Part shown: positions 518 to 63,070 of the stretch, piece after piece
Layout: each line of letters opens with the position of its first letter
Position numbering within the stretch: position 1 is the first letter of the stretch
DNA from: an uncultured cyanobacterium
GTDB lineage: Bacteria; Acidobacteriota; Vicinamibacteria; Vicinamibacterales; UBA2999
DNA: 64,000 nt
Direction of reading: 5' to 3'
NCBI GenBank assembly: GCA_963833135.1
Contig: CAWHWW010000019.1
Span: 384,699-448,698 of the forward strand
Made by a program: the position numbers and the translations under genes
Notes under the pieces: model-generated
What the model saw: the letters and a program-made list of their open reading frames with translations, nothing else
Database searches by the model: none
What the model was told of the DNA's origin: nothing

Positions 518-594
518 TCTTACGGGCTTACGGGCTGCGGGCTTACGGAAATAACCGTACCCGCGAGCCCGTAGACCGCAAGCCCGCAAGCCCT
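518..594. repeat. hairpin of 7-8 nt tandem repeats (CGGGCTTA/AAGCCCG family)
   Basis: Left arm cttacgggcttacgggctgcgggcttacgg, loop aaataa, right arm ccgtacccgcgagcccgtagaccgcaagcccgcaagcc. Lies just after the stop at 510. Confidence 0.85.
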
Positions 595-623
595 GCTTGT
601 GAAATCTAGTACAATGTCCCCCT

Positions 624-1388
624 GTGGAAGCCATTGAACATCCGTCCCCGCTAGTCGCGCTCGTCAATCTGCTCTTCGCGCCGCTCGGGATCCACGTACC
701 CGATCATCTCGTTTTCATCGGGCTGATCACGCTTTTCATCCTCTTCATCGGACTGGCCATCCGCTCAAAACTGAGCGTCGAGAATCCCGGCAAGCTGCAG
801 ATCGTCCTCGAGGACATCATCGCGTTCCTCGTCGGCGTGCTCGAAAGCAACATGGGCCCGAAGGGACGCCAGTTCCTGCCGCTGCTCGGCAGCATTTTCG
901 TCTTCATCCTGCTCGGTAATCTGATGGGCCAGATCCCCGGATTGGGGTCGCCGACGAGCAACATCAACGTGCCGTTCGCGCTCGCGATCACGTTGTGGCT
1001 CTACTACCACTGGCAGGGCATTCTGGCGAACGGTCCGCTGAACTACCTCAAGCACTTCGCGATCATGCCGGGCGTGCCAATCGTGATGGCGCCGCTGATT
1101 TTCGTCATCGAGATCATCAGTCACATGTCGCGCGTGCTGTCGCTGACGCTCCGCCTCTTCGGCAACATCTTCGGCGAGCACCTGGTCGTGCTGATCATCG
1201 CCAGCATCATCCCGTTCATCGCGCCGCTGCCGATCCAGTTCCTGGGACTCATCGTCGGACCGTTGCAGGCGTTCATCTTCCTGACGCTCGGCGCGATCTA
1301 CCTCACCGCCGCCACGCACGTCGACGATCACGGTGACGATTACGGCAGCGTCGGCCCGCACCCCGAGCCGATGATTCCGAAAATGTAG
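624..1388 (+). CDS. atpB: F0F1 ATP synthase subunit a
   Basis: 254 aa polytopic membrane protein with the subunit-a signature LSLTLRLFGNIFGEH. GTG start, exact start uncertain. Confidence 0.9.
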   Translation: MEAIEHPSPLVALVNLLFAPLGIHVPDHLVFIGLITLFILFIGLAIRSKLSVENPGKLQIVLEDIIAFLVGVLESNMGPKGRQFLPLLGSIFVFILLGNLMGQIPGLGSPTSNINVPFALAITLWLYYHWQGILANGPLNYLKHFAIMPGVPIVMAPLIFVIEIISHMSRVLSLTLRLFGNIFGEHLVVLIIASIIPFIAPLPIQFLGLIVGPLQAFIFLTLGAIYLTAATHVDDHGDDYGSVGPHPEPMIPKM

Positions 1389-1398
1389 TCGCGTTTCC

Positions 1399-1455
1399 GG
1401 TAGCCAGTACTGGCATACTGGCTACTGGCTACTGGCTACTGGCTACTGGCTACTT
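1399..1455. repeat. GTAGCCA/TGGCTAC heptamer array with a short hairpin
   Basis: ggtagccagtactggcatac followed by tggctac repeated five times. The array overlaps the last codons and stop of the convergent gene 1436..3259. Confidence 0.9.
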
Positions 1456-5480: not shown

Positions 5481-5548
5481 TACTGTCGGGACGCGTATCC
5501 CGTCGGGACACACATCCCGTCGGGAGCAACGTCCCGTTCGGGATCGCA
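5481..5548. repeat. four tandem 17-bp units, each with the palindrome TCCCGTCGGGA
   Basis: Units start at 5481, 5498, 5515 and 5532 and end 3 nt before the fabZ ATG, in the divergent peptidase/fabZ gap. Confidence 0.85.
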
Positions 5549-6950: not shown

Positions 6951-7078
6951 CTGATTGGTGATTTAGCGACTGTCTGGTGATTCGCGAATTCGTGATTTGG
7001 CGATCAACTTGGTGATTCGCGAATTCGTCATTTGCAAATCACCAAACAATCGACAATTGCCAATCGCCAAATCGTCAT
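6951..7078. repeat. imperfect hairpin of GGTGATT/TGGCGAT-type repeats
   Basis: ggtgattcgcgaattcgt occurs twice. gatttggcgat and ttggtgatt pair with aaatcaccaa and atcgccaaatc. Lies between convergent genes. Confidence 0.8.
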
Positions 7079-9660: not shown

Positions 9661-9720
9661 GTTGCCAGCCGTATTCGCGTGCCGTTCTGGCTACTGGCGA
9701 CCGGCTACTGGCTACTGGTA
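9661..9720. repeat. TGGCTAC heptamer array
   Basis: ctggctactggcgaccggctactggctactgg, preceded by gttgccagcc. Confidence 0.8.
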
Positions 9721-10268: not shown

Positions 10269-11828
10269 TTGGACGAGCGCAACCTCGCGTTCGCGCGTTT
10301 GTTCCAGTCGGTGCGCGAGGGTGTCTATGTCGGCACTCTCGGCGCCAATAGCACCAGCACTCTCGCCGCCAATCCACACCTCAAGGCGATCTTCGGCTAT
10401 CCGCCGGACGCCGCCGACAGTCTGGTGCAGCCGTTCGACGCCGCGCGCTTCGTCGATCCGCAAGCCCGCCAGGGCTTCATCGACCTTCTCGATCGCGACG
10501 GCGGCGTGATGGATCACCTGATTCGCGTGCGGCGCGTCGACGGCACGCCGATCTGGATTGAAGTCTCGGCGACCGCATCGTATGCGGATGCCAAGACCTC
10601 GAGACCGCAGGACCTCAAGACCCCGGGCGCCTCGCAGCTGTCGATCGAGGCGCTCATCCGGGATGTCAGCCAGCGGAAGAAATCGGAGGATCAGAGCCGC
10701 GACGGACGTTACCAGATGCTGCAGGCCGAGAAGATGGCCGCGCTCGGGCAGACGATCTCAGGCGTTGCGCACGAACTGAATAATCCGCTCGCGACGATCC
10801 TGTCGTGGGCCGAGCGGCTCTCCGAACGCGATGTCGATGAGAAGACGAAGCAGGGCCTCGAAGTCATCCTCGGCGAATCCGAGCGCGCCGCGCGCATCGT
10901 TCGCAATCTCCTGACCTTCGCGCGCAAGCGCCAGACCACGCGGGCGATGGTCGATCTCAACCAGGTCGTGCGCGAAACGCTCGCGCTGCGGGCCTACGAA
11001 CAAAAGGTTTCCAGCATCAACATCGTCGAAGCCCTGGCGCCCGGCCTGCCCGATGTCTTCGCCGACGGTCATCAGATCAAGCAGGTCCTGCTGAACCTCC
11101 TGATCAATGCCGAGCAGGCGTGCCTCGCCGCCAGCGGCAGGGGGACGATCGTCATACGCACGTCTCACGACAACGATCGCGGTTCGCTCGTGCTCGAGGT
11201 CAGTGACGACGGGCCGGGCGTTCCTGAGGAGCGCCAGGGCAAGGTCTTCGATCCGTTTTTCACGACGAAGGAAGTGGGCCAGGGCACGGGGCTCGGGCTC
11301 ACCGTCGCCTATGCGATTGTGCAGGAGCACGGCGGACGCATCTGGCTCACGTCCAGGACAGGACAGGGCGCATCTTTCTTCATCGAGCTGCCGGTATCGG
11401 GTCAGCATCTGAACGCGCCCGCGGCGCGAGCGGCGCAACAGCCAATCTCGCTCGACGCCTTCAAGGGATTGCGCGTGCTGGTAGTGGAAGACGAGCCGGC
11501 GCTGGCGGTCGCCGTGTCGGAAGCGTTGTCCGATGCCGGTTTCGCGGTCGATCGAGCCGGCGACGGCGAGGAGGGGTTGACCCGCCTCACCGAAGCCCGC
11601 TACGACCTGATCGTTTGCGACCTCAAGATGCCGCGCATCGACGGCATGCAGTTCTACCGCGCGATGGCGGCGGCGACGCCGGCGCTCGCGCGCCGTGTGA
11701 TCTTCGTGACCGGCGACGTGGCCGGCACCGACGCGGAGCGGTTCCTGGAGGAAACCGGCTGCCGGTGGCTCTCCAAGCCTTTCAGGTTGGGCGACTTGCT
11801 GCGCGCGGCGCGCGACACGTTGACGTGA
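10269..11828 (+). CDS. hybrid sensor histidine kinase (PAS-HisKA-HATPase-REC)
   Basis: 519 aa. H-box GVAHELNNPLATI, N and G boxes (LLINAEQA, DDGPGV, GTGLGL), C-terminal receiver (LVVEDE, DLKMP). Confidence 0.85.
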   Translation: MDERNLAFARLFQSVREGVYVGTLGANSTSTLAANPHLKAIFGYPPDAADSLVQPFDAARFVDPQARQGFIDLLDRDGGVMDHLIRVRRVDGTPIWIEVSATASYADAKTSRPQDLKTPGASQLSIEALIRDVSQRKKSEDQSRDGRYQMLQAEKMAALGQTISGVAHELNNPLATILSWAERLSERDVDEKTKQGLEVILGESERAARIVRNLLTFARKRQTTRAMVDLNQVVRETLALRAYEQKVSSINIVEALAPGLPDVFADGHQIKQVLLNLLINAEQACLAASGRGTIVIRTSHDNDRGSLVLEVSDDGPGVPEERQGKVFDPFFTTKEVGQGTGLGLTVAYAIVQEHGGRIWLTSRTGQGASFFIELPVSGQHLNAPAARAAQQPISLDAFKGLRVLVVEDEPALAVAVSEALSDAGFAVDRAGDGEEGLTRLTEARYDLIVCDLKMPRIDGMQFYRAMAAATPALARRVIFVTGDVAGTDAERFLEETGCRWLSKPFRLGDLLRAARDTLT

Positions 11829-12688
11829 TTGCCGCTGTCGTTCTTGACCAGCACGAGCCCGGCGCGCTTCTGCGCGGCCTCCGGAACTCGCGTGTCCGGT
11901 TCCGGCCCGCCTACGCAGGCTTTCGCCATCGTGGGCTGGGCCTCCATTGCCGCAATCGTGTCACGCAAGGCGGCCGATGCGGCCACGGGCGTGACTTCCG
12001 CTCCAAGCGCTTCGCGCAATCGTCGAATGGCGCGCGCATGTAACTGCGAGACGCGCGATTCATTGACGCCAAGCTCCGCGCCGATGTCCTTCATCGTCGC
12101 TTCGTTGTAGTAGTAGAGGGTGATCACACGCCGCTCGCGTTGCGGCAGCGTCGCGATCGCGTTGCGCACGTGCGCCGTCACTTCGTCGCGCTCGTACTGC
12201 ATGTCTGGACGCTCCGGCTCCGCCGGCACCAGTACCGCGGGCAGCTGCGCCTCGTCGATGTTTTCGGCGCTCGAAAACGGCGACGTCGACTCGATCGTGT
12301 TGATGCGCACGATGGTCTTGCCCAGCCTTTTCTCGTCGGAGCCGACCGCCTCGGCAAGATCGGCGAGCGACGGCTCGTGTCCGAGCGTCGCGCGCAGCTT
12401 CTCGCGGGCTGCTTCGAGCTCGCGACGCACGCGGCGAACACCGCGCGGCCAGGCATCCTTGCGCAGCGCGTCGATCATCGCGCCGCGGATACGCCGCTCG
12501 GCGAACGTCTCGAACTTGATCCCCCGCGAATCGTCAAAACGATGGGCAGCATCGATCAAGCCGATCACGCCGTCCTGGACGAGGTCGCTGAGATCAATCG
12601 AATGCGGCATGGTCGCCGCCACGCGCCTGGCTAGCGCTTCGACAAACGCCAGCCCTGCTTCTACGCGGTGGGTCGGGGAAGTTTTCAT
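11654..12688 (-). CDS. sigma-70 family sigma factor, FliA/WhiG (sigma-28) type; 3' end uncertain
   Basis: Regions 2-4 are recognisable (DLVQDGVIGLIDA, RERRVITLYYYNEATMKDIGAELGVNESRVSQLHARAIRRLR). The ORF runs about 110 codons past region 4 and overlaps the kinase gene by 175 nt. Confidence 0.75.
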   Translation of the reverse strand: MKTSPTHRVEAGLAFVEALARRVAATMPHSIDLSDLVQDGVIGLIDAAHRFDDSRGIKFETFAERRIRGAMIDALRKDAWPRGVRRVRRELEAAREKLRATLGHEPSLADLAEAVGSDEKRLGKTIVRINTIESTSPFSSAENIDEAQLPAVLVPAEPERPDMQYERDEVTAHVRNAIATLPQRERRVITLYYYNEATMKDIGAELGVNESRVSQLHARAIRRLREALGAEVTPVAASAALRDTIAAMEAQPTMAKACVGGPEPDTRVPEAAQKRAGLVLVKNDSGNHVNVSRAARSKSPNLKGLESHRQPVSSRNRSASVPATSPVTKITRRASAGVAAAIAR

Positions 12689-15462: not shown

Positions 15463-16338
15463 ATGCCCCCGCGCTACGCCTATTGGACAATCCTCGTCGA
15501 CGATCAGCCGACGGCTTTTCGAGCCGGCGCCAGGGAAGACTTGCTGCCGACGTTCAATCGCCTGAAGGAAAAGCACGCGTCGGCGACGATGATGTGGTTT
15601 CAGAACGGGAAGTTGTGGCCATCACGTCTCGATGCGCAGGAAGCGATGCGCGCGCGCGGTGAGATGGGCCGCCGTGGCGATGCCCAGCAAGGCGGCCGTT
15701 TTCGCGATCGTTCTTCAAGTCCGCAGGCCCGCAAGCCCGCAAGCCCGCGAAGCTCTGAGCGCCCTGAATGGTCGCCCAAGCCCTCGAGCCCGCAATACCG
15801 CAAGTCCGCAAGCCCGCAAGCCGGCAAGCCCTCGGACTCCGACAAGCTCGAGTGGAAGCCCAAAGGCACATTCACCCCTGCGCCGAAACGATCCGAACAA
15901 TCCGATCGCCCCGAGCGGAAACCGAAGAGTTCTTTCGATCGTGATCGTCCGTCGGAGTGGAAGCCGAAGCGATCCTTCGATCGTGATCGCAAGCCCGAGT
16001 GGAAGTCGAAACGATCATTCGATCGCGATCGCAAGCCCGAGTCGAAACCCAGGACCGCTCGCTCTGAAAAGCTCGAATGGAAACCGAGAACCGAATCCGG
16101 AAGCCGGAACTCGGAACCAGGAACCCGCGCGAAGCGCGCGTGGATCCCCAAAGAGGAATACAAGAAGTCAAAGGGGATTGAGACGCCGCGCGACAGTAAA
16201 TGGCGCCCCGGCGGAGAGCACCGCGATCCGCGCCAGAAGTACAAGGACGCCAAGAAGGCCAAATGGTCGCGCTTCAAGCAGAACATCCGGCAGAAATGGG
16301 ACAAGAAGCAGGGGCGTAAGAAGGACGACGACAAGTGA
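15463..16338 (+). CDS. hypothetical highly basic repeat protein
   Basis: 291 aa. Globular-looking N-terminal 70 aa, then a K/R/S/D/E-rich tail with about three copies of a 14-aa repeat (EWKPKRSFDRDRKP). Confidence 0.5.
   Translation: MPPRYAYWTILVDDQPTAFRAGAREDLLPTFNRLKEKHASATMMWFQNGKLWPSRLDAQEAMRARGEMGRRGDAQQGGRFRDRSSSPQARKPASPRSSERPEWSPKPSSPQYRKSASPQAGKPSDSDKLEWKPKGTFTPAPKRSEQSDRPERKPKSSFDRDRPSEWKPKRSFDRDRKPEWKSKRSFDRDRKPESKPRTARSEKLEWKPRTESGSRNSEPGTRAKRAWIPKEEYKKSKGIETPRDSKWRPGGEHRDPRQKYKDAKKAKWSRFKQNIRQKWDKKQGRKKDDDK
15719..15835. repeat. AAGCCCG-type heptamer repeats inside a CDS
   Basis: ccgcaggcccgcaagcccgcaagcccgcgaag and cccgcaataccgcaagtccgcaagcccgcaagccggcaagccc, translated as SSPQARKPASP and SSPQYRKSASPQAGKPS. 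Confidence 0.75.
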
Positions 16339-16670
16339 TCGCGCATGTCGTCCTGTTCCGTCCGCGCGCGACGCTCACCGCAGATCAGCGTCAAGCCCTG
16401 GCAGATGCGCTTCGCGGCGCCGTCGAGGGCATTCCGCAGATCAAACGCGCCACCATCGGCAAGCGCATCCTCTTGAACCGTCCCGGTTACGAAACTCAAA
16501 TGGCCGAGCACTATGAATACTCGGCCATTCTCGAGTTTGATTCCGAACCGGACTTACGCGCCTACCTGGATCATCCCTCGCACAGCGATCTCGGCAAGCT
16601 GTTGTTCACATCTGCTGAAGCGGTCCTCGCCTACGACTTTCTGTCTACCAGCCTGGCCGAACTGCAATAG
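16335..16670 (+). CDS. Dabb (stress-responsive alpha/beta barrel) family protein
   Basis: 111 aa. HVVLFRP, YEYSAILEFDSEPDLRAYLDHPSH. Confidence 0.75.
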   Translation: MIAHVVLFRPRATLTADQRQALADALRGAVEGIPQIKRATIGKRILLNRPGYETQMAEHYEYSAILEFDSEPDLRAYLDHPSHSDLGKLLFTSAEAVLAYDFLSTSLAELQ

Positions 16671-17456
16671 TCAGGCGTCGGTGTCGCGTCCGAACGCGCG
16701 CTTGAGCGAGCGCATCAGGCTCGGCTGATTGCGGATGTCGTCGAGCTGTTCGAGCAGCTGCAACGCCTCCGAGATCGTATTGACAGGACGCACGCCGAGG
16801 CGCCTGGCGCCCGCCGGTACGTCCTTGAGATCGCCCGGCCAAATCAGGATGACCTTGGCCTTCGACTCGACGGCGATGTCGAGGCAATTCTCGGGGCGGT
16901 CGTCGACAAACGCATCGAGTTGAAGGGCATCCGCGATCTTGCCGCGAGAGCGCTGGACGACGAACACGCTCGGATGCTGAAAGCCACGCTCTGCGAGCCA
17001 CTGTTGCGACTGACGCTGCACGAGGTCACCCGCGGTCGACGGCCGCGTCGTCAGGAAAATAACCTCCCACCGCCGCTCGCGCGCGCTCTTGGCGATTCGC
17101 GCAATGATTCCCGGCTCGAGCTCGGGCAGCGTCAGCCAGAAGTTTTCGATCTTCTTGACATGATCCCACAGCTGCACCTGCTGCCTCGCCGTGAGGTGCA
17201 GCTCCCGTATCGGGATGTTGGTCGTCGCATCGTCGTCGGGTTTTGCGGATTCATGCTCAGCCTGGTTTGCGACCGGGCTGGCGGCAGTCGAGGCCTGAGC
17301 GGCGCCGGTTGCCTCAGAGAGGGAAGGCCGCTTCGAAATCTTCTTGGCAGCCTTTCGAAGCGCCTCCTCGCCGAACAGTTTGATCGCCTCGTGATGCAAG
17401 GCGTCATACATGTCGGCGACGGTTCCATCCAGGTCGAATCCGACGCGCAGCGGCAT
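16671..17456 (-). CDS. HAD-superfamily hydrolase-like protein (possibly deoxyribonucleotidase-like)
   Basis: 261 aa. N-terminal FDLDGTVAD motif, a low-complexity insert, and a C-terminal FVDDRPEN segment. Confidence 0.5.
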   Translation of the reverse strand: MPLRVGFDLDGTVADMYDALHHEAIKLFGEEALRKAAKKISKRPSLSEATGAAQASTAASPVANQAEHESAKPDDDATTNIPIRELHLTARQQVQLWDHVKKIENFWLTLPELEPGIIARIAKSARERRWEVIFLTTRPSTAGDLVQRQSQQWLAERGFQHPSVFVVQRSRGKIADALQLDAFVDDRPENCLDIAVESKAKVILIWPGDLKDVPAGARRLGVRPVNTISEALQLLEQLDDIRNQPSLMRSLKRAFGRDTDA

Positions 17457-19514: not shown

Positions 19515-19550
19515 CAGGCCTACAGGCCGACAGGCGAACGGGCCAACAGG
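19515..19550. repeat. CAGGCCT/ACAGGCG heptamer array
   Basis: caggcctacaggccgacaggcgaacgggccaacagg. This is the reverse complement of the family at 33464 and 37373. Confidence 0.8.
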
Positions 19551-20592: not shown

Positions 20593-20604
20593 CTTTGTTC
20601 TGAA

Positions 20605-20666
20605 GTAGCCAGTATCCGGTAGCCAGAAGAACTCTTGTATTTCCTGGCTACTGGCATCTGGCTACT
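20605..20666. repeat. GTAGCCA-family hairpin
   Basis: gtagccagtatccggtagccag, loop aagaactcttgtatttc, then ctggctactggcatctggctac. Confidence 0.9.
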
Positions 20667-42604: not shown

Positions 42605-42607
42605 GAA

Positions 42608-42682: not shown

Positions 42683-43127
42683 TACTTAACCGAGATAATC
42701 ACCGTCTTTTCGAACGCGTCGCCGATGCTTTCCGAGGTCACCGACTCGAGCTCGGCGACGGCGAGGTGCACGATGCGGCGCTCGTAGGGATTGAGCGGAC
42801 CAATCTCCTGCGCCAGGCCGCTGTCCTTGGCCTTGCCGCCGAGGAACAGCGCCATCTGCCGCAGCTCGTCGTCCTTGCCCTTGCGATAGCCCATGCAGTC
42901 GACGACCAGGCGCCGGCCCTTCCGACGCTTCGTGGCGGTAAATCGCCGCGACGATGTGCTGGAGCGCGGCAAGCGCTTCGCCCTGGCGGCGGATCAGGAC
43001 GTTGCCGTCCTCGCCGGTCAGGTTGATGCGGACGCCGTCCGGCATTTCTTCCGCGGACGGCCTCGAGGTCGAGGTCCATCGCGTCGACGATTTTCTGGAC
43101 AAACTCAGTGATGTCGGCTGTGGCCAT
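42682..43127 (-). CDS. jag: Jag/KhpB R3H-domain RNA-binding protein, two apparent frameshifts
   Basis: MATADITEFVQKIVDAMDLDLEAV (ATG at 43127); PDGVRINLTGEDGNVLIRRQGEALAALQHIV (ORF 42686..43102); R3H part LNPYERRIVHLAV (ORF 42682..42972). Confidence 0.8.
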
Positions 43128-43165
43128 AAGTAACGGTGCCTGATGTGCGTGGTGCCTAAGGGTGC

Positions 43166-44885: not shown

Positions 44886-45147
44886 CTGATGATTTACTTG
44901 ATAGGATCGACCTGGTGTCGAGTGACCGGTGACGGGACCGGGATCGAAGCCGTGACCGCCGAACGGATGACAACGGCACAGACGCTTCGTGCCGATCCAT
45001 CCGCCGCGGAGCACTCCGAAGCGCGCGATCGATTCGCTCATGTAGTCGGCGCAGCCGGGCGTGTAGCGGCAGCTGCCGGCAAAGAGCGGCGAGAACGTCA
45101 TCTTGTAAGCCCGACAAACAGCAACGCAGCCTTGCGAGTGGACTCAT
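44886..45147 (-). CDS. yidD: membrane protein insertion efficiency factor YidD; boundaries uncertain
   Basis: FSPLFAGSCRYTPGCADYMSESIARFGVLRGGWIGTKRLCRCHPFGGHGFDP. There is no in-frame stop before the yidC ATG. The likely ATG at 45147 is in a different frame. Confidence 0.6.
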
Positions 45148-45510: not shown

Positions 45511-45526
45511 GGCAGGAACGCTGGCT

Positions 45527-45593
45527 CTGGGGCTTGGGACTTGGGACTTGGAGCTTGCGCTCAGTCCAAGCCCAGGACCCAGGACCCAGGACC
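45527..45593. repeat. GGGACTTGG/CCAGGACC hairpin
   Basis: ctggggcttgggacttgggacttggagc pairs with gctcagtccaagcccaggacccaggacccagg. Lies between rpmH and rnpA. Confidence 0.85.
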
Positions 45594-45594
45594 T

Positions 45595-45759: not shown

Positions 45760-45877
45760 TTTTCTCCTCCGCCTTCGCGGCGAAGCCGCTCCGGCGAGAC
45801 CTCGCCGTAGCGTGGCGCGGTTGCAAGACCCGCGCGGAGGCGGGTCGGTCGAACCTAACGATTATAGTCGGTATTCG

Positions 45878-45948
45878 CAATCCGGGAACCGGGAACCGGC
45901 ATGCTAAAGTGACCCCTTCCCCAGGTTCCAGGTTCCCGGCTCCCGGAT
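45878..45948. repeat. GGGAACC/GGTTCCC hairpin
   Basis: aatccgggaaccgggaaccgg pairs with ccaggttccaggttcccggctcccggatt. Confidence 0.85.
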
Positions 45949-45956
45949 TTAGGGAG

Positions 45957-45988
45957 TTTTCCACACCTGTGGAAAACATTGTGGAAAA
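45957..45988. promoter_or_regulatory. cluster of three DnaA-box-like 9-mers (TTTTCCACA)
   Basis: TTTTCCACA at 45957..45965 (forward). TGTGGAAAA at 45968..45976 and 45980..45988 (reverse). Each matches 8 of 9 positions of TTATCCACA. About 50 bp upstream of dnaA. Confidence 0.7.
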
Positions 45989-47411: not shown

Positions 47412-47640
47412 CTTCGCAGGTTTTCCACAGCCCTTTTGTGCATGGATTGCGGGCTGCTGATGGGGCGAAAGACCCCATTCTGACCGTCCGTCCAACAACA
47501 GTCGATTCACAGAAAAATGCACAGGTTAAATTATTGATATAAAGGACTTATTCCTGCTGGAAATTTCGTAAACAGGACCTATTTCCTGTATACTTTTATA
47601 TCTTCGCCTTTCACTCAATTCTCAGAGGTTAAGCAGGGCT
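47412..47640. other. dnaA-dnaN intergenic region: candidate oriC part (DnaA box plus AT-rich stretch)
   Basis: TTTTCCACA at 47421..47429. A markedly AT-rich tract at about 47525..47610 (aaattattgatataaagg, tatacttttatatc) sits in an otherwise GC-rich window. Confidence 0.55.
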
Positions 47641-51320
<3,680 letters not shown>

Positions 51321-51321
<1 letters not shown>

Positions 51322-51351
51322 CAGGGATCAGGGACCAGGGATCAGCGATCA
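51321..51351. repeat. GGGATCA heptamer array
   Basis: gcagggatcagggaccagggatcagcgatca, between gyrB and gyrA. Confidence 0.8.
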
Positions 51352-53894
51352 GTGGAAATCAATCGGACTCCCGTAAACATCGAAGACGAGATGAAGCGCT
51401 CGTACCTGGATTACGCGATGAGCGTGATCATCGGGCGGGCGCTGCCGGACGTCCGCGACGGCCTGAAGCCCGCGCACCGCCGCGTGCTCTACGCGATGAG
51501 CCAGATGGGCCTCGCCTCGAACCGCGCCTATCGCAAGTGCGCAAAGGTGATCGGCGAAGTCATCGGCAACTACCATCCGCACGGCGATCAACCGGCCTAC
51601 GACACGCTGGTCCGCCTGGCGCAGGACTTCAACATGCGCAAGACCCTGGTCGACGGCCAGGGCAACTTCGGCTCGGTGGACGGCGATCCGCCGGCCGCGT
51701 ATCGCTACACGGAAGCCAGGCTCGAGGCGCTCGCCGAAAGCCTGATGGAGGATCTCGACAAGAACACCGTCGATTTCGTCCCGAACTTCGACGAGACGAC
51801 GACGGAGCCGACGGTGTTCCCGGCGACGTATCCGAACCTGCTGGTCAACGGCTCGACGGGCATTGCCGTCGGCATGGCCACGAACATCCCGCCGCACAAC
51901 CTCGGCGAGGTGATCGACGGCGTGATCTGGATCATCGAGAACACGCTGTGTCGGGCTCGACGCGGTCCACATACTCGCGAGAGCAGAAGCTCAAGGAACT
52001 GATCCGGCTGATCCCGGGCCCCGACTTCCCCACCGGCGGCATGATCGTCGGCAAGCGCGGCATCCACGAGGCCTACCTGACCGGCCGCGGCTCGATCCAG
52101 GTGCGCGCCCGCACCGAGATCGAAACGACGAAGAAAGGCGATCGCCAGCAGATCGTCGTCACCGAGATCCCGTATCAGCTGAACAAGACGCGGCTGCTCG
52201 AGCGCATCGCCGAGCTCGTCCGCGAGAAGACGATCGAGGGCATTTCCGATCTTCGCGACGAATCGGATCGCGACGGCATGCGCATCGTCATCGAGCTGAA
52301 GCGCGGCGAAGTCGGCGAAGTGGTCCTGAACAACCTGTTCAAGCAGACGCAGCTGCAGCAGTCGTTCGGCATCATCACGCTGGCGATTGTCGCCGGCCGG
52401 CCGAAGGTGCTCAGCCTGCTCGAAGTGGTCGAGCACTTCATCGACTTCCGGCGCGACGTGGTTCGCCGGCGCATCGAGTTCGAGCTGCGCAAGGCCGAAG
52501 CGCGCGCACACATCCTCGAAGGCCTGAAGATCGCGCTGGATCACCTCGATGCGGTCATCAAGCTGATCCGCGGCTCGAAGAATCCCGCTGAAGCCAAGAC
52601 CGGGTTGATCGCGCAGTTCGGGCTGTCGGAGATCCAGTCGCAGGCGATCCTGGACATGCAGCTGCAGCGCCTCACCGGCCTGGAGCGCGACAAGATCCTG
52701 AGCGAGCTGGCGACGCTGCAGGAGCTCGATCGCGAAGCTGAAGAACATCCTCGCCAACCAGCCGCTGCTGCTGAAGATCATTCTCGACGAGCTGCGCGCC
52801 GTGAAGGCGAAGTTCGCGGATCCGCGGCGCACGGAGCTGATCGACGAAGAAGGCGAGCTCAGCATCGAGGACCTGATCACCGAGGAAGACGTCGCGGTGT
52901 CGGTGACCGATACCGGCTACATCAAGCGCACGCCGATCACCACGTATCGCACGCAGAACCGCGGCGGCAAGGGCCGCATCGGCATGCGCACGCGCGAAGA
53001 GGACGTCGTCAACCACCTGTTCGTGGCCTCGACGCACTCGTACATGATGATCTTCTCGGATCGCGGCCGCGCCTATTGGCTGAAGGTCCACGAGATTCCG
53101 GACGTCGGCGCCGACGGCAAGGGCAAGTCGATCGCGAACCTGGTGCAGATGGAATCCGGCGAGAAGCTCGCCGCGATGCTCGCCGTCCAGGAGTTCGACG
53201 ACAGCGCTTCGTCGTCATGGGCACGCGCAAGGGCACGATCAAGAAGACCGAGCTCTCGGCATTCGCCAACCCGCGCGCCGGCGGCATCATCGCCATGGGC
53301 ATCGAGGAAGGCGACGCGGTCATCGACGTGCAGCTGTCCGACGGCCAGAGCGAGATCTTCATCGGCACCAAGGACGGCAAGGCGATCCGCTTCGTCGAAG
53401 GCGACGTCCGCGCGATGGGCCGCACCGCCTACGGCGTGCGCGGCATCCAGCTGCGCGAGAACGACGAGGTCGTGGCGATGCAGGTCGCCAAGCCCGGCGG
53501 CACGCTGCTGACGGTGACCGAGAAGGGCTACGCGAAGAACACGCTGATCGACGAATACCGCGTCACCGGCCGCGGCGGCCTTGGCGTGAAGAACGTCGAA
53601 GTCACGGACAAGAACGGCGCGGTCGTGGCCATCGCCCAGATCCACGCCAACGAAGAGTTGCTTGTCATGACCGAGCAGGGCAAGATCCTGCGCACGCCGG
53701 CGAACGAGATCCGCACCATCGGCCGCGCCACGCAGGGCGTGAGGCTGATGGATCTCGAAGGCGAGGACAAGATCGTGTCGGTCGCGCTCGTCGAAGCGGC
53801 AACTGCGGAAGAGGCGTACGGCCGAACGGCGACGCGCCGCCGCCGGCTGAACCGCCACCGCCTACAGGAGACGATTCGGCCGAGGAATGCATGA
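51352..53894 (+). CDS. gyrA: DNA gyrase subunit A, three apparent frameshifts (about 51945-51985, 52725, 53205)
   Basis: ORF 51352..52002 ([20 protein letters not shown], the YRYTEARL active-site Tyr region). Then the frame of 51537..53894, then ORF 52801..53511, then back to the previous frame for the C-terminal beta-pinwheel. Confidence 0.9.
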
Positions 53895-54594: not shown

Positions 54595-54700
54595 TCCTGC
54601 GGGCTTGCGGTCGACGGGCTTGCGGGATGTGCTTGTACCGGCAGCTCGTAGCCCGTAGCCCGTAGCCTCGTAAGCCCGTAGCCCGTAAGCCCGTTAAGCC
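54595..54700. repeat. GCCCGTA-family hairpin between convergent genes
   Basis: ctgcgggcttgcggtcgacgggcttgcggg pairs with ctcgtagcccgtagcccgtagcctcgtaagcccgtagcccgtaagcccgttaagccc. Confidence 0.9.
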
Positions 54701-57009: not shown

Positions 57010-57012
57010 GAA

Positions 57013-57073
57013 GTAGCCAGTAGCCAGAGCCAGTAGCCAGAGAACTCTTGTCTGGCTACCGGCTACTGACTAC
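57013..57073. repeat. GTAGCCA-family hairpin
   Basis: gtagccagtagccagagccagtagccag, loop agaactcttgt, then ctggctaccggctactgactac. Confidence 0.9.
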
Positions 57074-58919
57074 TATTCTACCGTGACACTCTTCGCCAGA
57101 TTACGCGGCTGATCGACATCGCAGCCGCGACGGACGGCGATGTAGTACGACAAAAGCTGCAACGGCAGCGAAATCACGACCGGCATCAATAGCCGACTGT
57201 GTTGCAGGAACTGCGACGAGGCAATCGCCTGTCGCTCAAGAGCTCCTTCAGCGTCGTGTCGCCTTCTGTCGTGATGGCGATGATCGAGCCGCCGCGAGCC
57301 TTGGCTTCCTGGATGTTGCCCTGCATCTTCTCGAACACGTGATCGTGGGTCGCCAGCGCGACGACCGGCATCTGCTCGTCGATGAGCGCGATCGGGCCGT
57401 GCTTCATCTCCCCTGCCGGATAGCCTTCGGCGTGGATGTAGGAGATCTCCTTCAGCTTGAGCGCACCCTCGAGGGCGATCGGATAGTTGATGCCGCGGCC
57501 CAGATAGAGAAAGTCCGATCGGTTGTAGAACTTCGCCGCGATCTCCTCCAGGTGCTTCGCCGTCTTCAGCGTGTCTTCGAGGATCTGCGGCAGCTGCATC
57601 AGCGCGCTGATGTGCTCGCAGCGCTCCGCCTGCGACAGCGTGCCGCGCACCTCGGCGAGCTTGAGCGCGAGGAGGTAGAGCGCGACGAGTTGCGTCGTGA
57701 AGGCCTTGGTCGACGCCACGCCGATCTCCGGGCCCGGCATGCGTGTAGATCGTGCCTTCGGCCTCTCGCGTGGCCATGCTGCCGACGACGTTGCAGATCG
57801 AAAGGCTACGGGCGCCCTTCCCTTTCGCTTCTCGCAGGGCGGCGAGCGTGTCGGCCGTTTCGCCGGACTGCGTGATGGCGACGGCCAGCGTCTTGTTGTT
57901 GATGATCGGGTCGCGATAGCGGTATTCGGAGCCGTAATCGACTTCGACGGGCAGCTTCGCGAGCTCTTCGATCATGAACTTGCCGACGAGCGCTGCGTGC
58001 CACGACGTGCCGCAGGCGAGCAGCGTGATCTTGTCGATCGGCCTTCAGCTCGGCGTCGGAGATCGCCATCTCGTTCAGGTGCACCTGCCCGGTCTCGAGC
58101 GAGGCGCGGCCGAGCACGGTTTCGCGGACGGCCGACGGCTGCTCGAAGATCTCCTTGAGCATGAAGTGCTTGTAGCCGGCCTTCTCCGCCGAGATCGGGT
58201 CCCAGGTGACGCGGGTCGGCTTGCGTTCGACGGTCTTGCCGTCGAGCGTCATGAACGTCACGCCCGTGAGCCGTCACGACCGCCATTTCGTGGTCGTCGA
58301 GGAACACGACATTGCGGGTGTGGCTCAGGATCGCCGGCACGTCAGAGGCGACAAAGTATTCGCCGTCGCCAATGCCGACGACAATCGGCGGACCGTTACG
58401 GACGGTGACGAGCTTATCCGGATCGTCGGCCGAGAGCAGCACGAGCGCAAAGAGCCCGCGGACGCGTTTCATCGCGCGCAGCACCGCGTGTTCGAGGCCG
58501 TCGTCCTTCCATTCCTTCTGGACGAGATGCGCGACGACCTCGGTGTCGGTCTCCGAGTCGAACGTGTGGCCCTCGGCGACGAGCTCGCGCTTGATCTCGA
58601 GATAATTTTCGATGATGCCGTTGTGGACGACGACGATGCGGCCCGAGCCGTCGCGATGCGGATGCGCGTTCTCTTCAGTCGGGCGGCCATGCGTGGCCCA
58701 TCGCGTGTGGCCAAGGCCATAGACGCCGACGAGCGGCTTTTCTTGAATGGCGTTTTCGAGGTTGATCAACTTGCCGGCGCTGCGCCGCACTTCGACCGCG
58801 CCGTCCTGCACGACGGCGACACCGGCGGAGTCATAGCCGCGATACTCGAGCTTGCGCAATCCCTCGATCAGGACCGGCACGACTGGCTTCGGTCCAACGT
58901 AACCGACAATGCCGCACAT
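57073..58919 (-). CDS. glmS: glutamine-fructose-6-phosphate aminotransferase, four apparent frameshifts (near 58270, 58040, 57740, 57235)
   Basis: MCGIVGYVG start at 58919 (ORF 57972..59123). Further pieces in ORFs 57806..58261, 57073..57975 and 57186..57740. The canonical C-terminus is [11 protein letters not shown]. Confidence 0.9.
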
Positions 58920-58924
58920 AGGGG

Positions 58925-58989
58925 AAACTTGAAGTTGACAGTTAAGAGGTTGACGGTTGACAGTTGAGTTTGCGAGTTTCAGTTTCAGG
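58925..58989. repeat. GTTGACA/GTTTCAG heptamer array
   Basis: gaagttgacagttaagaggttgacggttgacagttgagtttgcgagtttcagtttcagg. It shares gacagttaagag with the 150-bp element. Confidence 0.75.
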
Positions 58990-60394
58990 TTACGGTTTCG
59001 ATTTCGCGTCTTTCCTTCGAGCCACCCATCCCTGTTTATTCTCCTGCCGCGAGCGGCCGATGGCGAGCGCGCCGGCCGGCACATTCGTCGTGACCGCGGA
59101 GCCCGCTGCAATGTATGAGCCATCGGCCAGGGTCACCGGCGCGACGAGCGTGCTGTTGCTGCCGACGAACACGTTCTTCGCCAATCACGGTCTGGTGCTT
59201 CTGCTCGCCGTCGTAGTTGCAGGTGATGGTGCCGGCGCCGACATTGGTCTTTGCGCCAATCGTCGCATCGCCTAGATAGGCGAGGTGATTGGCCTTCGCG
59301 CCCTTGCCCATCACGGTCTTCTTGAGCTCGACGAAGTTACCGATGTGTGCATCCTCGCCGATCTCGGATCCCGGGCGGATGTGCGCGAACGGACCCACAA
59401 AGGAGCCGGTCTCGACTGTGGAATCCGTCACCACAGTGTGGTTCCTCACACACACGCGATCGCCGATCGTCGAGTTGACGATCCGCGCGCCCGAGTGGAT
59501 TTCACAGGCTGCCCCGATCTTGGTCGAGCCTTCGAGAAAGACGCACGGATAAATCACCGTGTCGGCCCCGACGACAACGTCGGCGTCGACGTAGGTGGTC
59601 GCGGGATCGATCAACGTCACGCCCGCGGCCATCAATTCTTCGTTCTTCTGTTGGCGAACCATTGTGCTGACCTCTGCAAGTTCGGTACGGCTGTTGATGC
59701 CGCGAATCTCGTCGGCGCGCTCGACGGTCCACGTCGCCACGGTGCGTTTCTGTTTGCGGTAGATCGCGACGAGATCGGGCAGGTAGTACTCGCCCTGCTT
59801 GTTGGCGGTGCCGATGGTATCGAGCGCGGCGAACAGCGGGGCGAGATCGAAGGCGTAGATGCCGGAATTGATCTCAGCAATCGCCTTCTGCGCGGCGGTG
59901 GTATCGCGCTCCTCGACGATTTTCGAGATGGTGCCGTTGGTGCGAACAATGCGTCCGTATCCAAACGGGCGCTGGAGATGTGCGGTAAGGACGGTGGCGG
60001 CGGCCGCGGCTTCGGCATGCGTGTCGAGGAGCGCCTTCAGCGAAGCAACCGTGAGGAGCGGAACATCGCCCGAGAGCAGGACGACGGTCCCAGTCTTCCC
60101 TTCCAGACGCGCCCGCGACTGGAGCAGCGCGTGACCCGTTCCGAGCTGCTGCTCTTGCGTGACGAACTGGACCTGGGTCCGCTTCGCGAGCGAATGCTGG
60201 ACCTCGTCGCCGCCGTGTCCCACGACCATCGTGATGCTTTTCGGCTGCAGGGCGGCGGCGATCCTGAGAACGCGTTCGACGAGCGTCAGGCCGCCGATCT
60301 TGTGCAGGACCTTGGGCAGGAGGGACTTCATCCGTGTGCCCTTACCGGCGGCGAGGACAACGACGTGTATGTCAGGCACGCGAGGGGAATCCAA
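58990..60394 (-). CDS. glmU: bifunctional GlcNAc-1-P uridyltransferase/GlcN-1-P acetyltransferase, one apparent frameshift near 59185
   Basis: ORF 59036..60394 ([13 protein letters not shown], LbH hexapeptide repeats) continues in ORF 58990..59184 ([17 protein letters not shown]). TTG or GTG start. Confidence 0.9.
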
Positions 60395-60463: not shown

Positions 60464-61315
60464 CTATTTATTGCGCTCCATTATCTCGTAGACCTTCTTG
60501 GCAGTAAGTCCCAGACGCTCTCCGGTTTCCCTGGCCACGTCTCTCTTGGAGCCAGACTGCTTTAATTCTGTTATTTGACCAAATAATTTAACCACCGACT
60601 CGTCGGTAATCTCCGATGGGACCTCGGATTCAGGATCGACTGGTGGCACCAGGACCGTAAACTCGCCCTGAGGGGCGGTAAATTTAGCCAAGAGCTCGTC
60701 GATCGTGCCCGAAACGAACTCCTCATGAAGCTTTGTGATTTCGCGGCCAATTATTATTGGTCGTTTAACCAATTGATTGAGATCGGCCAACGTTTTCAGC
60801 ACCTTATGAGGTGCCTCGAAGAACACCACTAGCCGATGCCTTGAAGCCTCTGATAGCTGCTCCAGCCATAATTTGCGGTCTTTTAGCCTAATTGGCGGGA
60901 AGCCGAGGAACGTGAAGCCCTGCGACGACACCCCTGACGCGGATATGGCTGCCGCGACGGCGCTTGCTCCTGGGATTGGCTCCACCCTGAAGCCGGCACC
61001 GCGAATTGCCGCAACCAGTGCGGCACCGGGGTCCGAGATTCCAGGGGTCCCAGCGTCGGTCACAAGGGCAACCGACTCCCCTTTCGCAAGCTGCGCCTTG
61101 ATTCGTTCGACACGTGCCCGCTCGTTGTGCTCGTGCACGCTCAAAATCGCGGTTTCGATGCCGAAATGGCGAAGCAGGATGCCGGTCCGGCGTGTGTCCT
61201 CTGCAGCGACCAGCTGGACCTGTTTCAGGATCTTGATGGCCCGAAGGGTGATGTCGTCCAGGTTGCCGATTGGGGTCGCGACGACGTAGAGAACACCCTT
61301 CGAGTCGCGAGGCAT
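60464..61315 (-). CDS. rsmI: 16S rRNA (cytidine1402-2'-O)-methyltransferase
   Basis: 283 aa. LYVVATPIGNLDDITLRAI, AEDTRRT, LVTDAGTPGISDPG. Confidence 0.9.
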   Translation of the reverse strand: MPRDSKGVLYVVATPIGNLDDITLRAIKILKQVQLVAAEDTRRTGILLRHFGIETAILSVHEHNERARVERIKAQLAKGESVALVTDAGTPGISDPGAALVAAIRGAGFRVEPIPGASAVAAAISASGVSSQGFTFLGFPPIRLKDRKLWLEQLSEASRHRLVVFFEAPHKVLKTLADLNQLVKRPIIIGREITKLHEEFVSGTIDELLAKFTAPQGEFTVLVPPVDPESEVPSEITDESVVKLFGQITELKQSGSKRDVARETGERLGLTAKKVYEIMERNK

Positions 61316-61375
61316 CCGGCCATTTTAAGGTACCATTGTGAGATGGCTCTCCTCCGTTCTTAACCTCAGGAAGGC

Positions 61376-63035
61376 ATGCACGCGGCTGAACCGTTACCTC
61401 ACTTCGTAGACGACTATCTTTCGTTCCTCTATGAGGTGCACCCCACCGGCGCAACGATGGATGGGGTTCACGTCCATGACGATCTGATCGAAGACTACCG
61501 GCGCCCGGCGATCGACACGCACCTCAGCGCGCTCGCCGGCTTCGGTCGCCGGCTCGACAGCATTCCCGTCCACGGACTCCCCGCTCTCGAGCAGATCGAG
61601 CATCAGATCGTTTCGTCGAACATTCGCGCCCGCCAGTTCGAGCTCGAAGCGGTCCGGTCGTGGGAGCGCAACCCGCACGTCTACGCCGACACGCTGGCGT
61701 CGAGCCTGGCAGCGCAGTCGATCTTCACCTACGCGCCCGAGACCGAGCGCGCCCGCCGCGTCCTGTCGAAGTTGCGGCAGGTGCCGCGGCTCGTCCAGGC
61801 CGCGCGCGACAACATCAAGGAACCGCCCGCGATCTTCGTCAAGGTCGGCATCGATACCTGGCGCGGCGCGATGTCGTTCATCGACGCCGACCTGCCGCGC
61901 GCTTTCGCCAACGTCGACGATATGCACCTGCTCGGCGATCTCGCCGACGCGTGCGGCGAAGCGGTGCAGACGATTGGCGCCTACGTCACCGACCTCGAGA
62001 ACGACATTCGGCCGAAGGCCAAGGGCACGTTCCGCCTCGGGCGCGATCGCTTCGAGCAGAAGCTGCGTCTGGAAGAAGGCATCACCCTGCCAATCGATCG
62101 CCTGCTGGCGATCGCGACGCGCGAGCTCGCCGCGACGCAGGAAGAGTTCCGCCAGCTGGCCGGACGCCTGAACGGCGGCGATCCGATCGCGGCGTGGCAC
62201 AAGGCCAAGCGGAAACATCCTGCGGCCGGCGCGCTGCTTGCGACAGCCCGCGAACAGCTCGACGAGCTGCACACGTTCCTGTCGCGCTCGCCGGTGATGT
62301 CGCTGCCCGACAGCGGCACCATTACCGTCGCGCCAACACCGGAATTCTTCCGCTGGTCGTCGGCGAGCATGTGGACGCCGGGCCCGTTCGAATCGAAGCC
62401 GTCGCGCGCGATGTATTACCTGACCGACGTCGATGCGAAGTGGGAGGACGATCGCAAGGGCGAGCACCTGCTCGACTTCAACCTGCCGACGCTCTGGGCG
62501 ATCTCGATCCACGAGGTTTACCCGGGCCACTTCCTTCACTATCAATTCCTGAAAAAGGTGACCTCGAAGGTCAGGAAGTCGACGATGTTTGCGCCGGCCT
62601 CCTACATGGAAGGGTGGGCGCATTACTGCGAGCAGATGATGATCGAGGCGGGTTTTGGCCGCGGCGACCACACGCTCAAGCTCGGCCAGCTCGCCGAGTC
62701 CCTGGTCCGCCTGGCCCGATTCGTCGTCGGCATCCGCCTGCACACCGAGGACTGGTCGGTGGAGCAGGGCGTGCGGTTCTTCATGGACGAAGCGTTTCTC
62801 GAGGAATCGAGCGCGCGTCGCGAAGCGGAGCGGGGCACCTTCGATCCGACATATCTGGTGTATTCAGCAGGGAAGTTGATGCTGCTGAAGCTCCGTCATG
62901 ACTGGTATGAAGAGCAGGGCGGCAAGCCCTCGCTGCGCTCGTTCCACGATACGCTGCTCGTCACATGGAGCGGCACCGTTCTGGGCGCTTCGCAAGTTGA
63001 TGCTCGACGGCCATAACGACGTCGTGCTGGAATAA
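61376..63035 (+). CDS. DUF885 family protein (putative metallopeptidase fold), one apparent frameshift near 62960
   Basis: ORF 61376..63016 carries HEVYPGHF. Shifting frame after FHDTLL gives HGAAPFWALRKLMLDGHNDVVLE, ending at the TAA at 63033..63035. Confidence 0.75.
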
Positions 63036-63038
63036 GTC

Positions 63039-63070
63039 GGTTCAGGGGTTCAGGGTTCAGCGTTCAAAGG
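63039..63070. repeat. GGTTCAG heptamer array
   Basis: ggttcaggggttcagggttcagcgttcaaagg. Confidence 0.8.

Follow-up and report, generated by a model that had tools for sequence, protein, structure and literature searches.

Tandem heptamers able to fold between genes have been described in filamentous cyanobacteria, where short tandemly repeated repetitive (STRR) sequences with 7-bp units form hairpins between co-transcribed genes, as in hupS/hupL and others, an arrangement regarded as 'not unusual' (PMC2670836). STRR hairpins also lie upstream of hoxW, with proposed roles in transcript stability, translational coupling or termination (PMC2670836), and heptamer arrays with nearby complementary arrays have been listed for the Nostoc hyp region (PMC2408588). 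Repetitive extragenic palindromic (REP) elements are characterised by a GTAG or CGTC foot that is left unpaired and by a REP-associated tyrosine transposase (RAYT) gene (PMC3733652, PMC6006769), and in the acidobacterium Solibacter usitatus ~600 'atypical' hairpins are associated with class 3 HUH-Y1 genes (PMC6006769). The TAACTGA repeats of Beggiatoaceae, cyanobacteria and Bacteroidetes are intergenic, occur in 2–6 copies, many of them beside start codons, and form 169 direct sets against one inverted set (PMC4679880). Here we describe a 64-kb stretch of DNA (the window, G+C 61–66%) in which tandem arrays of 7–9-nt units, most of them paired with a complementary array to form a hairpin, occupy the gaps after genes. 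The AtpA encoded in the window is 90% identical to that of a Vicinamibacterales metagenome-assembled genome (MAG), and all of the next 19 best loci come from Vicinamibacteria or Acidobacteriota; this places the host, a soil bacterium, in the Vicinamibacterales, Acidobacteriota. We favour, with moderate confidence, the view that these arrays are a REP/STRR-like superfamily of dispersed intergenic palindromic repeats whose arms consist of tandem 7–9-nt units, with any effects on mRNA being secondary.

The window arrays share with STRRs the tandem heptamer units, the presence of several dispersed intergenic families per genome, and the capacity to form hairpins, including between co-transcribed genes. 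They differ in coming from the Vicinamibacterales, outside the filamentous/heterocystous cyanobacteria to which STRRs were originally restricted, in their GC-rich units, among which 8- and 9-nt ones are common, in the mirror-image arrangement, which is the majority form, and in their density in 3′ spacers, which is near saturation (26/34 gaps). Neither population polymorphism nor turnover is, to our knowledge, on record for STRRs. REP elements classically show the same gap bias, lying in transcribed rather than promoter-only spacers, and the imperfect palindromes of the window are found in 26 of 34 non-divergent and one of five divergent gaps. With REPs, bacterial interspersed mosaic elements (BIMEs) and REP doublets (REPINs) they also share high copy number, several families per genome, often an inverted-dimer arrangement, and proposed roles in mRNA stabilisation and attenuation. 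With GTAG at its beginning and CTAC at its end, the GTAGCCA family resembles 'double-foot' GTAG REPs (PMC3733652, PMC6006769). However, GTAG is present in this family only, where it is repeated in each unit and base-paired rather than forming an unpaired foot, and most families have neither a GTAG nor a CGTC tag. The window arms are internally periodic and change in whole-unit steps, the elements measure 30–150 nt compared to 20–40 nt for REPs, and no RAYT was found in the window.

Class 3 HUH-Y1 'REPtron-like' systems of Acidobacteria/Planctomycetes resemble the window in phylum (Acidobacteriota) and in having hairpins in many copies; their structures, which we compared by description only, are reported with a CnGA foot, and no class 3 HUH-Y1 gene was present in the window or the compared loci. 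Mycobacterial interspersed repetitive units (MIRUs) are intercistronic variable-number tandem repeats (VNTRs) whose 40–100-bp units contain small open reading frames (ORFs) overlapping the stop and start codons on either side. Like the window arrays they are tandem repeats between operon genes whose copy number varies between strains, but they are not palindromic, whereas the 7–9-nt window units are mostly in palindromic arrangement. The TAACTGA repeats are also intergenic heptamer arrays, although they have a single unit, are nearly always direct, lie upstream of genes and keep a fixed orientation. Intrinsic terminators, including the proposed U-tract-poor 'hairpin cluster' type, have in common with the window elements a GC-rich stem-loop downstream of the stop codon; in contrast, the window stems lack a U-tract, measure 20–70 bp with mismatches at regular intervals, show symmetry between the strands, and many lie inside an operon. 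A full-text literature search found no description of the occurrence, density or dynamics of such arrays in Acidobacteriota. The novelty claimed in the initial annotation is overstated, as hairpin-forming heptamer arrays as such are known in cyanobacteria (PMC2670836), and the finding extends the known STRR/REP-like descriptive class to Acidobacteriota rather than defining a new category.

Arrays at gene ends

Tandem Repeats Finder returned 93 rows that merged into 51 arrays (period 6–10, at least 2.5 copies), compared to a mean of 4.1 (maximum 8) in 30 dinucleotide shuffles of the window. Fifteen arrays had an inverted partner within 120 nt (0.23 in shuffles) and 28 scored at least 40 (0.03 in shuffles). 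The non-coding 10% of the window holds 38 of the 51 arrays (p ~1e-27) and 24 of the 28 strong arrays (p ~1e-20), confirming that the tandem 7–9-nt arrays first noticed at gene ends are real and non-random. We catalogued 27 intergenic loci, comprising 18 hairpins and nine one-armed direct arrays; the latter, about a third of the loci, have little or no structure (E about 0). Arrays are present in 26 of 34 co-directional or convergent gaps and in one of five divergent gaps (Fisher p = 0.025). The elements occupy transcribed spacers directly after stop codons and avoid promoter-only spacers: they start between −10 and +29 nt relative to the upstream stop codon, with the 39061 palindrome as the outlier, and mostly end 0–31 nt ahead of the next start codon. 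The overlap with stop codons reported initially was reproduced for atpA (−10 nt), wzm (−5 nt), pcrA (1 nt) and the PP2C phosphatase (array 1408–1454, ORF end 1436). The statement that nearly every gap is filled by hairpins needs correction, because about a third of the loci are one-armed and eight non-divergent gaps have no array.

Nineteen stretches were folded as RNA, namely the 18 intergenic hairpin loci and the 1397–1454 stretch, which is listed as one-armed. The z-scores ranged from −2.7 to −15.9, with 0–1 of 200 shuffles folding equally well. Long stems were detected with a gapless stem finder and a periodicity test. Period-7 arrays predominate, and periods 8 and 9 are also present. Many stems have one mismatch per unit, the 8-nt families having seven paired bases and one unpaired base, so that uninterrupted helices seldom exceed 7–10 bp; window positions 515–594, 30886–30950 and 45523–45594 are examples. 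Because coding sequence rich in G+C folds well too, a folding profile in sliding windows gave no information. The intergenic elements are listed below, with genes named from Pfam scans of ~60 window ORFs.

515–594: hairpin (CTTACGGG)n / (CCCGCAAG)n in the co-directional gap between a 137-aa ORF and the second atpB-like gene; −46.3 kcal/mol, z −5.67
1397–1454: (CTGGCTA)x6.6 array with a short inverted arm GGTAGCCAGTA in a convergent gap, covering the stop and last codons of a GAF-SpoIIE phosphatase gene (ORF end 1436); z −4.02
6952–7070: hairpin of GGTGATT / CGCGAAT / CAATCGC units in the convergent gap between an HD-domain gene and a major facilitator superfamily (MFS) transporter gene; z −5.17
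9687–9718, plus strand: one-armed (CTGGCTA)x4.6, eamA / PCYCGC gene
19515–19550, minus strand: one-armed (CAGGCCAA)x4.5, 4 nt upstream of the neuB start
19704–19776: hairpin of the GGGCTTGC family, overlapping the dus stop codon; z −3.49
20604–20666: GTAGCCA-family hairpin with the conserved tip GAACTCTTGT, nusG-like / dus gap; z −6.42
22293–22380: hairpin (TACGGGC)n / (GCCCGT..)n, mfd / surA-like gap; z −4.72
26021–26170: 150-nt near-perfect palindrome of degenerate CAGTCGR heptamers, CTP-transferase / mfd gap; −97.4 kcal/mol, z −15.1
26643–26671, minus strand: one-armed (ACCTCAAG)x3.6, wzt / CTP-transferase gap
28026–28142: hairpin of CACGGRGG units, wzm / wzt gap, overlapping the wzm stop; z −9.13
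29351–29416: hairpin (CGGGCTTA)n, atpD / atpC, beginning right after the atpD stop; z −2.70
30886–30955: hairpin (GGTCTTGA)n / (CAAGACCT)n, atpG / atpD gap; z −3.32
31855–31940: GTAGCCA-family hairpin, atpA / atpG, with the atpA stop TAG forming part of the outer stem; −56.9 kcal/mol, z −10.8
33472–33505, minus strand: one-armed (CCTGTTGG)x4.2, atpH / atpA
35221–35252, minus strand: one-armed (GGTTCCAGG)x3.7, AIR-synthase-like gene / atpF′
36356–36480: hairpin of TACGGGCCACGGAGGCAC arms and an 81-nt tip region, parB / AIR-synthase-like gap; z −9.80
37373–37447, minus strand: one-armed (CCTGTTCG)x8.5, parA / parB
39061–39211: 151-nt palindrome of degenerate CAGTCGR heptamers, mnmG / rsmG; −107.7 kcal/mol, z −15.9
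41073–41200: hairpin of GATTGCG / GATCCG units, mnmE / mnmG gap; z −11.15
42606–42682: GTAGCCA-family hairpin, yidC / mnmE gap, tip inverted relative to the other three copies; z −5.94
45523–45594: hairpin (TGGGACT)n / (CCCAGGA)n, rpmH / rnpA gap; z −3.44
45873–45949: hairpin (CCGGGAA)n / (GGTTCC)n, divergent rpmH / dnaA gap, beside three DnaA boxes; z −4.50
51322–51352, plus strand: one-armed (CAGGGAT)x4.4, occupying the entire 30-nt gyrB / gyrA gap
54598–54694: hairpin (TGCGGGCT)n / (AGCCCGT)x7 in a convergent gap, touching the pcrA stop; z −2.90
57012–57074: GTAGCCA-family hairpin, glmS / pcrA gap, 2 nt from the pcrA start; z −6.31
63039–63066, plus strand: one-armed (GGTTCAG)x3.9, DUF885 gene / zinc-ribbon gene

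Three arrays lie inside reading frames, one of them in a histidine kinase gene (10592–10622) and the other two as follows.

24962–24997, minus strand: in-frame GGGATCR heptamers (GGGGATC/AGGGATC) in the Mfd inter-domain linker
15716–15831, plus strand: (CAAGCCCG)x14 array of the ACGGGCTT family in ORF 15463–16338

The Mfd linker has about five units, encoding GDRGSGIGDQG, compared to nine units translated as GDQGSGI repeats in the sister species described below (contig L081, ~16610–16680). The GGGATCR heptamers occur both in frame in this linker and as the filling of the gyrB / gyrA gap. The second array is apparently translated as QARKPASP-like repeats and probably lies within a disordered basic tail. 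ORF 15463–16338 has no Pfam match; it combines a plausible globular N-terminus with a long basic low-complexity tail that also contains 14-aa repeats (PEWKPKRSFDRDRK), derived from a 42-nt x3.3 repeat at 15910–16046. The mnmG frame extends 110 nt into the 39061 palindrome, giving a 650-aa ORF compared to 613 aa in the sister species. Palindromes of ~150 nt are usually unstable in bacteria with active SbcCD, and two near-perfect ones (26021–26170 and 39061–39211) are maintained in this chromosome.

Relatedness, turnover and distribution

The units recur between loci well beyond chance, with 66 pairs within one mismatch compared to 12 expected (five times chance). TACTGGC and TACGGGC, for example, are one base apart. 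The ten or more families counted initially are thus many unit types indeed, but they form a network of units one substitution apart rather than separate families. Within the 64 kb, GTAGCCA is found at six loci, ACGGGCT(T) at six to seven and CAAGACC at two to four. Alignments showed that four GTAGCCA hairpins share the tip GAAA-CTCTTG-YCTTTC, with one copy inverted, that the 150-nt palindrome is present at two loci (26021 and 39061), and that the hairpins at 28026 and 36356 are paralogues with common outer arms. These data support the architecture common to the loci and the resemblance to REP elements proposed earlier. In the long elements the complementarity between arms (85–93%) is much higher than the periodicity between successive units (0.43–0.55), from which we conclude that the arms are copies of each other and not independent arrays; the long palindromes show gradients of degenerate units.

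The hairpins also have a fixed handedness. The G-richer arm is on the 5′ side in 18 of 19 window hairpins (p = 8e-5), and on metagenome contigs (GTAGCCA)n precedes (TGGCTAC)n 11 times with no case of the reverse order. As independent local inverted duplications would give an order of ~50:50, this counts for dispersal of the elements between loci. The acidobacterial 'Candidatus Sulfotelmatobacter'-like clade introduced below shows the opposite handedness, equally consistently (33/41), so a universal rule that the G-rich arm comes first was rejected, and handedness is specific to the family or lineage and not a physical rule. We also considered the arrays as suppliers of stop codons; only some arms contain one (TAG in GTAGCCA, TGA in GGTCTTGA, TAA in CCCGTAAG), these are not consistently the arms adjoining the gene, and the idea was dropped. 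On three metagenome contigs (L093, L120 and L130) nested palindromes were observed, in which outer (GTAGCCA)n arms surround inner arms of another heptamer (GTAACCA/GAAACTG; GAGTGCT/GAGTAAC); such a structure may have grown at the hairpin tip, or one element may have inserted into another element's loop.

An AtpG relative with 98% identity is encoded on contigs from ten separate Joint Genome Institute (JGI) metagenome assemblies (L081–L090), which are independent short-read assemblies of ten samples. The contigs of this sister species, fully syntenic with the window at 81–92% nucleotide identity, have unbroken genes and their own arrays. Some of these arrays differ in length within the sister population. 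The parA / parB array (CCTGACCA)x8-11 is 93 or 69 nt long depending on the sample, a difference of three 8-nt units; at wzt / CTP-transferase, arrays of 39 and 47 nt differ by one unit, and the mfd / surA hairpin is 65 nt, or 36 nt with a 29-nt central deletion.

Comparison of the window with the sister species revealed every degree of conservation. Orthologous but diverged elements are present at mnmE / mnmG, wzm / wzt and parB / AIR-synthase-like, and the mnmG / rsmG palindrome is 57 nt in the sister compared to 151 nt in the window, with the extra 96 nt at the tip. At wzt / CTP-transferase the same unit is found in opposite orientation, as expected if each lineage kept the other arm of an ancestral hairpin. 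The atpA / atpG and mfd / surA gaps hold different families in the two species, the latter a CAAGACC element in the sister, and the site of the 26021 palindrome is empty in the orthologous sister gap (L081). At atpG / atpD, the sister gap is 11 nt, while the window carries a hairpin of ~71 nt inserted right after TAA; at atpH / atpA, an ATGA stop/start overlap in the sister corresponds to a 46-nt array in the window. Overall, the sister atp junctions are 11–33 nt long or overlap by ATGA, compared to 46–89-nt arrays in the window, and in the filled-versus-empty alignments the insertion lies directly after the stop codon. Conservation of position in relatives, which the initial annotation had proposed to check, was thus found for some elements, while others are absent, swapped or flipped. 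As read from these alignments, elements appear, vanish, lose an arm or their centre, or swap family between sister species. The short or overlapping sister junctions show the window atp hairpins to be recent and dispensable, which speaks against the arrays being a default structure that the genes need.

We then surveyed the four atp junctions in ~75 acidobacterial species. The gaps are bimodal, being either 0–30 nt, or 70–170 nt with period-7 arrays, and genomes tend to carry arrays at most of the four junctions or at none. In the AtpA tree, the carriers comprise one large Terriglobia clade, with array-free members nested inside, and scattered Vicinamibacterales. The array-rich clade corresponds to the uncultured 'Candidatus Sulfotelmatobacter', in which period 7 is almost exclusive, and the same architecture with other units is found in many MAGs from different assemblers. 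The all-or-none pattern indicates a genome-wide process and not a regulatory need of particular loci, and array carriage is a property of the genome rather than of the locus. Low-GC contigs with (GTAGCCA)n were considered as possibly cyanobacterial; one of them (L147) carries ftsA next to ftsZ, and is probably not.

Origin and possible roles

Placement, relatedness across loci, unit-step polymorphism, turnover, dispensability and distribution at the genome level, all observed above, are consistent with dispersed palindromic repeats. Changes in length would arise by replication slippage, for which the whole-unit differences within the sister population (three units; one unit) count, and arm complementarity would be made or kept by inverted duplication or intrastrand template switching. 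Copies may spread between loci through a hairpin-recognising HUH/Y1-type enzyme or by ectopic recombination. Effects on the host would be incidental, as for REPs: a stable stem-loop in the mRNA could impede 3′ exonucleases, cause RNA polymerase to pause or to stop in part, or cover the ribosome-binding site that follows, and no single copy would be required by the host. Filled and empty sites, family swaps and orientation flips count for dispensability and turnover.

Several observations weigh against this explanation. The number of families exceeds what a few cognate enzymes would easily explain. Pfam scans of the window detected no transposase or other mobility machinery and no Y1/RAYT gene among the ORFs scanned, and a motif scan of 210 loci for RAYT returned only one Y1_Tnp gene, flanked by unrelated hairpins. 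The filled-versus-empty alignments against the sister species show no defined ends and no target-site duplication, as miniature inverted-repeat transposable elements (MITEs) have at their insertion sites. Many Sulfotelmatobacter-like species have kept hairpins at the same four atp gaps, which may leave room for some host benefit, and this persistence, together with a slight advantage of the sense strand in folding among relatives (see below), fits some selection at the host level. The evidence base is also restricted to the 64 kb and its homologous loci.

The single Y1_Tnp gene lies on a low-GC (34%) metagenome contig (L167, 5236–5925) and encodes an IS200-like Y1 transposase (Pfam Y1_Tnp, E = 8e-10; motifs NHIHL and YIHMNP). 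A copy of the hairpin TGTCAAAGACSGTCTTTGACA stands on either side of the gene, a REPtron-like layout. As a RAYT lead the gene was rejected, because the hairpins that flank it are its own TGTCAAAGACGGTCTTTGACA ones; the (GTAGCCA)5 array 550 nt upstream lies in another ORF, and its presence there is a coincidence.

It is possible, but in our judgement rather unlikely, that the arrays are RNA elements selected by the host, serving as U-tract-independent terminators or attenuators, 3′-end stabilisers or translational-coupling hairpins that punctuate operons. Their position at stop codons, ending 0–31 nt before the next start, and their very stable stems would suit such roles, and transcript stabilisation or translational coupling has been suggested for the STRR hairpins of cyanobacteria (PMC2670836). 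Terminator-like sites with a U-tract occur at chance level (23, 18, 18 and 5 compared to 14.6, 16.7, 15.1 and 3.5 expected) and are almost all intragenic. The sole convincing intergenic one is at 63437–63454, and just a single site overlaps an element, on the wrong strand. Elements without a U-tract and a lone conventional terminator near 63438, as described initially, are therefore what we found, and with terminators at chance level something else must end transcripts. Hairpins kept at the same atp gaps across a large clade point in the same direction, as does a weak strand bias in relatives. Among 38 relative hairpins with known orientation the sense strand folds better in 24 and worse in 14, with a mean sense–antisense difference of −2.4 kcal/mol (Wilcoxon p = 0.055), and G–U pairs number 119 vs 86 (p = 0.025), although in both comparisons the cases are phylogenetically non-independent.

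In the window, by contrast, sense and antisense strands fold equally well on average. Furthermore, gaps of 11–33 nt or a stop/start overlap suffice for the sister species at the corresponding atp junctions. One-armed arrays with no structure (E about 0) make up one third of the loci; among close relatives, a given gap can carry unrelated units, or a unit in opposite orientations; the units also form in-frame arrays inside genes; and strong termination within the atp operon would presumably be harmful. The terminator or stabiliser role suggested at the outset is weakened by the same facts, that is, by the many elements between atp cistrons, the third without a hairpin and the lack of strand bias in the window. 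One-armed arrays were also considered as Rho-utilisation sites; those of the sister are C-rich and unstructured on the sense strand, those of the window are G-rich, and the absence of a consistent rule led us to reject this candidate.

A similarly doubtful account combines both ideas, with the arrays being a self-propagating 'palindromic microsatellite' seeded after stop codons by dedicated machinery, for example class 3 HUH-Y1, and then adopted as U-tract-free operon punctuation. The adopted role could cover mRNA processing, 3′-end protection or attenuation. Such a course would explain both the chance-level canonical terminators and the hairpins kept at the atp junctions of the clade.

Less probable still is a pure by-product of mutation, in which chance seeds are expanded locally by slipped strands and duplicated locally in inverted orientation, with no movement between loci. 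It would account for the unit-step polymorphism within one population, the degenerate unit gradients inside long palindromes, the in-frame arrays in coding linkers, and the failure to find machinery or target-site duplications. However, it does not readily yield units that recur beyond chance (66 pairs vs 12), a conserved tip in four GTAGCCA copies, a 150-nt element at two loci, or a fixed handedness (18/19 and 11:0). The all-or-none pattern per genome is neutral here, as it could fit a genome-wide mutator regime too.

Binding sites for a sequence-specific protein, acting on DNA as a nucleoid or topology factor or on RNA as a CsrA-like GGA binder, are improbable to the point that we give them little weight. 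Cooperative binding sites typically consist of short units in series, ANGGA-like motifs are present in several units (CACGGAG, CAGGGAT and CCAGGAC), and one element lies beside DnaA boxes; against this, one genome contains at least ten unit types with complete turnover between relatives, the major families (GTAGCCA, ACGGGCT and CAAGACC) share no motif, and the copy number is polymorphic. An assembly or sequencing artefact can practically be dismissed in spite of the single-base indels of the window assembly, because related arrays are present at orthologous gaps in the ten independently assembled short-read sister contigs, similar arrays are found in dozens of MAGs from different assemblers and in at least 120 metagenome contigs containing (GTAGCCA)3, and sequencing errors would not produce strict placement between genes.

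The indels mentioned above split mfd, gyrA, gyrB, parA, glmS and other genes between frames, all of them intact in the sister species. For mfd, comparison with the intact sister gene (1162 aa) puts the breaks at 23919, where one nucleotide is inserted, and at 22878, where one is deleted. The split genes are mfd (22027–25998), gyrB (48758–51321), gyrA (51352–53894), parA (37448–38231), glmS (57073–59123), surA-like (21164–22277), mnmE (41213–42600) and yidC/yidD (42682–45101). Splits in essential genes are most likely indel errors of long-read assembly and not pseudogenes, and the exact repeat copy numbers in the window should accordingly be treated with caution.

Few groups of soil bacteria are as abundant as the Acidobacteriota, and hardly any work exists on the signals that govern their gene expression. 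Should fast-changing hairpin arrays make up about a third of the non-coding DNA downstream of genes, gene callers will misplace stops and starts, terminator and operon predictors will be misled (several window ORFs extend into arrays), short-read assembly of MAGs may be interrupted or collapsed at the arrays, and the arrays would be highly variable VNTR-type strain markers. They also offer a second independent system, besides the cyanobacterial STRRs, for the origin of heptamers, mirror symmetry, handedness and effects on transcript ends or stability where U-tract terminators are lacking. As array-rich and array-free genomes occur in one clade, the responsible machinery can be searched for by comparative genomics. 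The handedness rule, the population polymorphism and this contrast between genomes are most worth following.

Other features of the window

The Pfam scans place the window in the neighbourhood of the replication origin. The minus strand carries rpmH-rnpA-yidD/yidC-mnmE-mnmG-rsmG-parA-parB, the AIR-synthase-like gene, atpF′FHAGDC, wzm/wzt and mfd, the plus strand carries dnaA-dnaN-gyrB-gyrA, and farther downstream pcrA, glmS, glmU and rsmI are again on the minus strand. Rfam at the gathering threshold gave no family matches in the whole window, and no tRNAs were found in it. Upstream of dnaA, at 45957–45988, lies a cluster of three perfect DnaA boxes (TTTTCCACA), abutted by the repeat hairpin 45873–45949, and another box is located just downstream of dnaA at 47421–47429, adjoining an AT-rich stretch (47510–47600). 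With five matches in the window compared to 0.2 expected, the DnaA-box region near dnaA is probably oriC.

A second ATP-synthase a-subunit gene (Pfam ATP-synt_A, 624–1388) lies distant from the atpF′FHAGDC cluster and is preceded by a 137-aa ORF with no Pfam match. The main cluster in the window has neither atpB nor atpE, indicating a split operon.

Two further sets of repeats differ in kind from the heptamer arrays. A 17-nt direct repeat, GTCGGGACACACATCCC x3.4, occupies 5485–5543 in the divergent gap between an S9 peptidase gene and a fabZ-like gene; each copy holds a GGGA-N-TCCC mini-palindrome, and the repeats are possibly iterated regulator-binding sites. In the zinc-ribbon (FmdB-type) gene at 63252–63400, coding repeats of 9 and 12 nt (AGGACAGCA x3.6; CGAAGACCGAGA x6.2) have periods that are multiples of three, unlike the intergenic arrays. 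Finally, a sigma-70-family ORF (11654–12688) runs ~118 codons beyond region 4 and overlaps the 3′ end of a hybrid histidine-kinase gene (10269–11828) by 175 nt; here the assembly has probably introduced a further frameshift or lost a stop codon.

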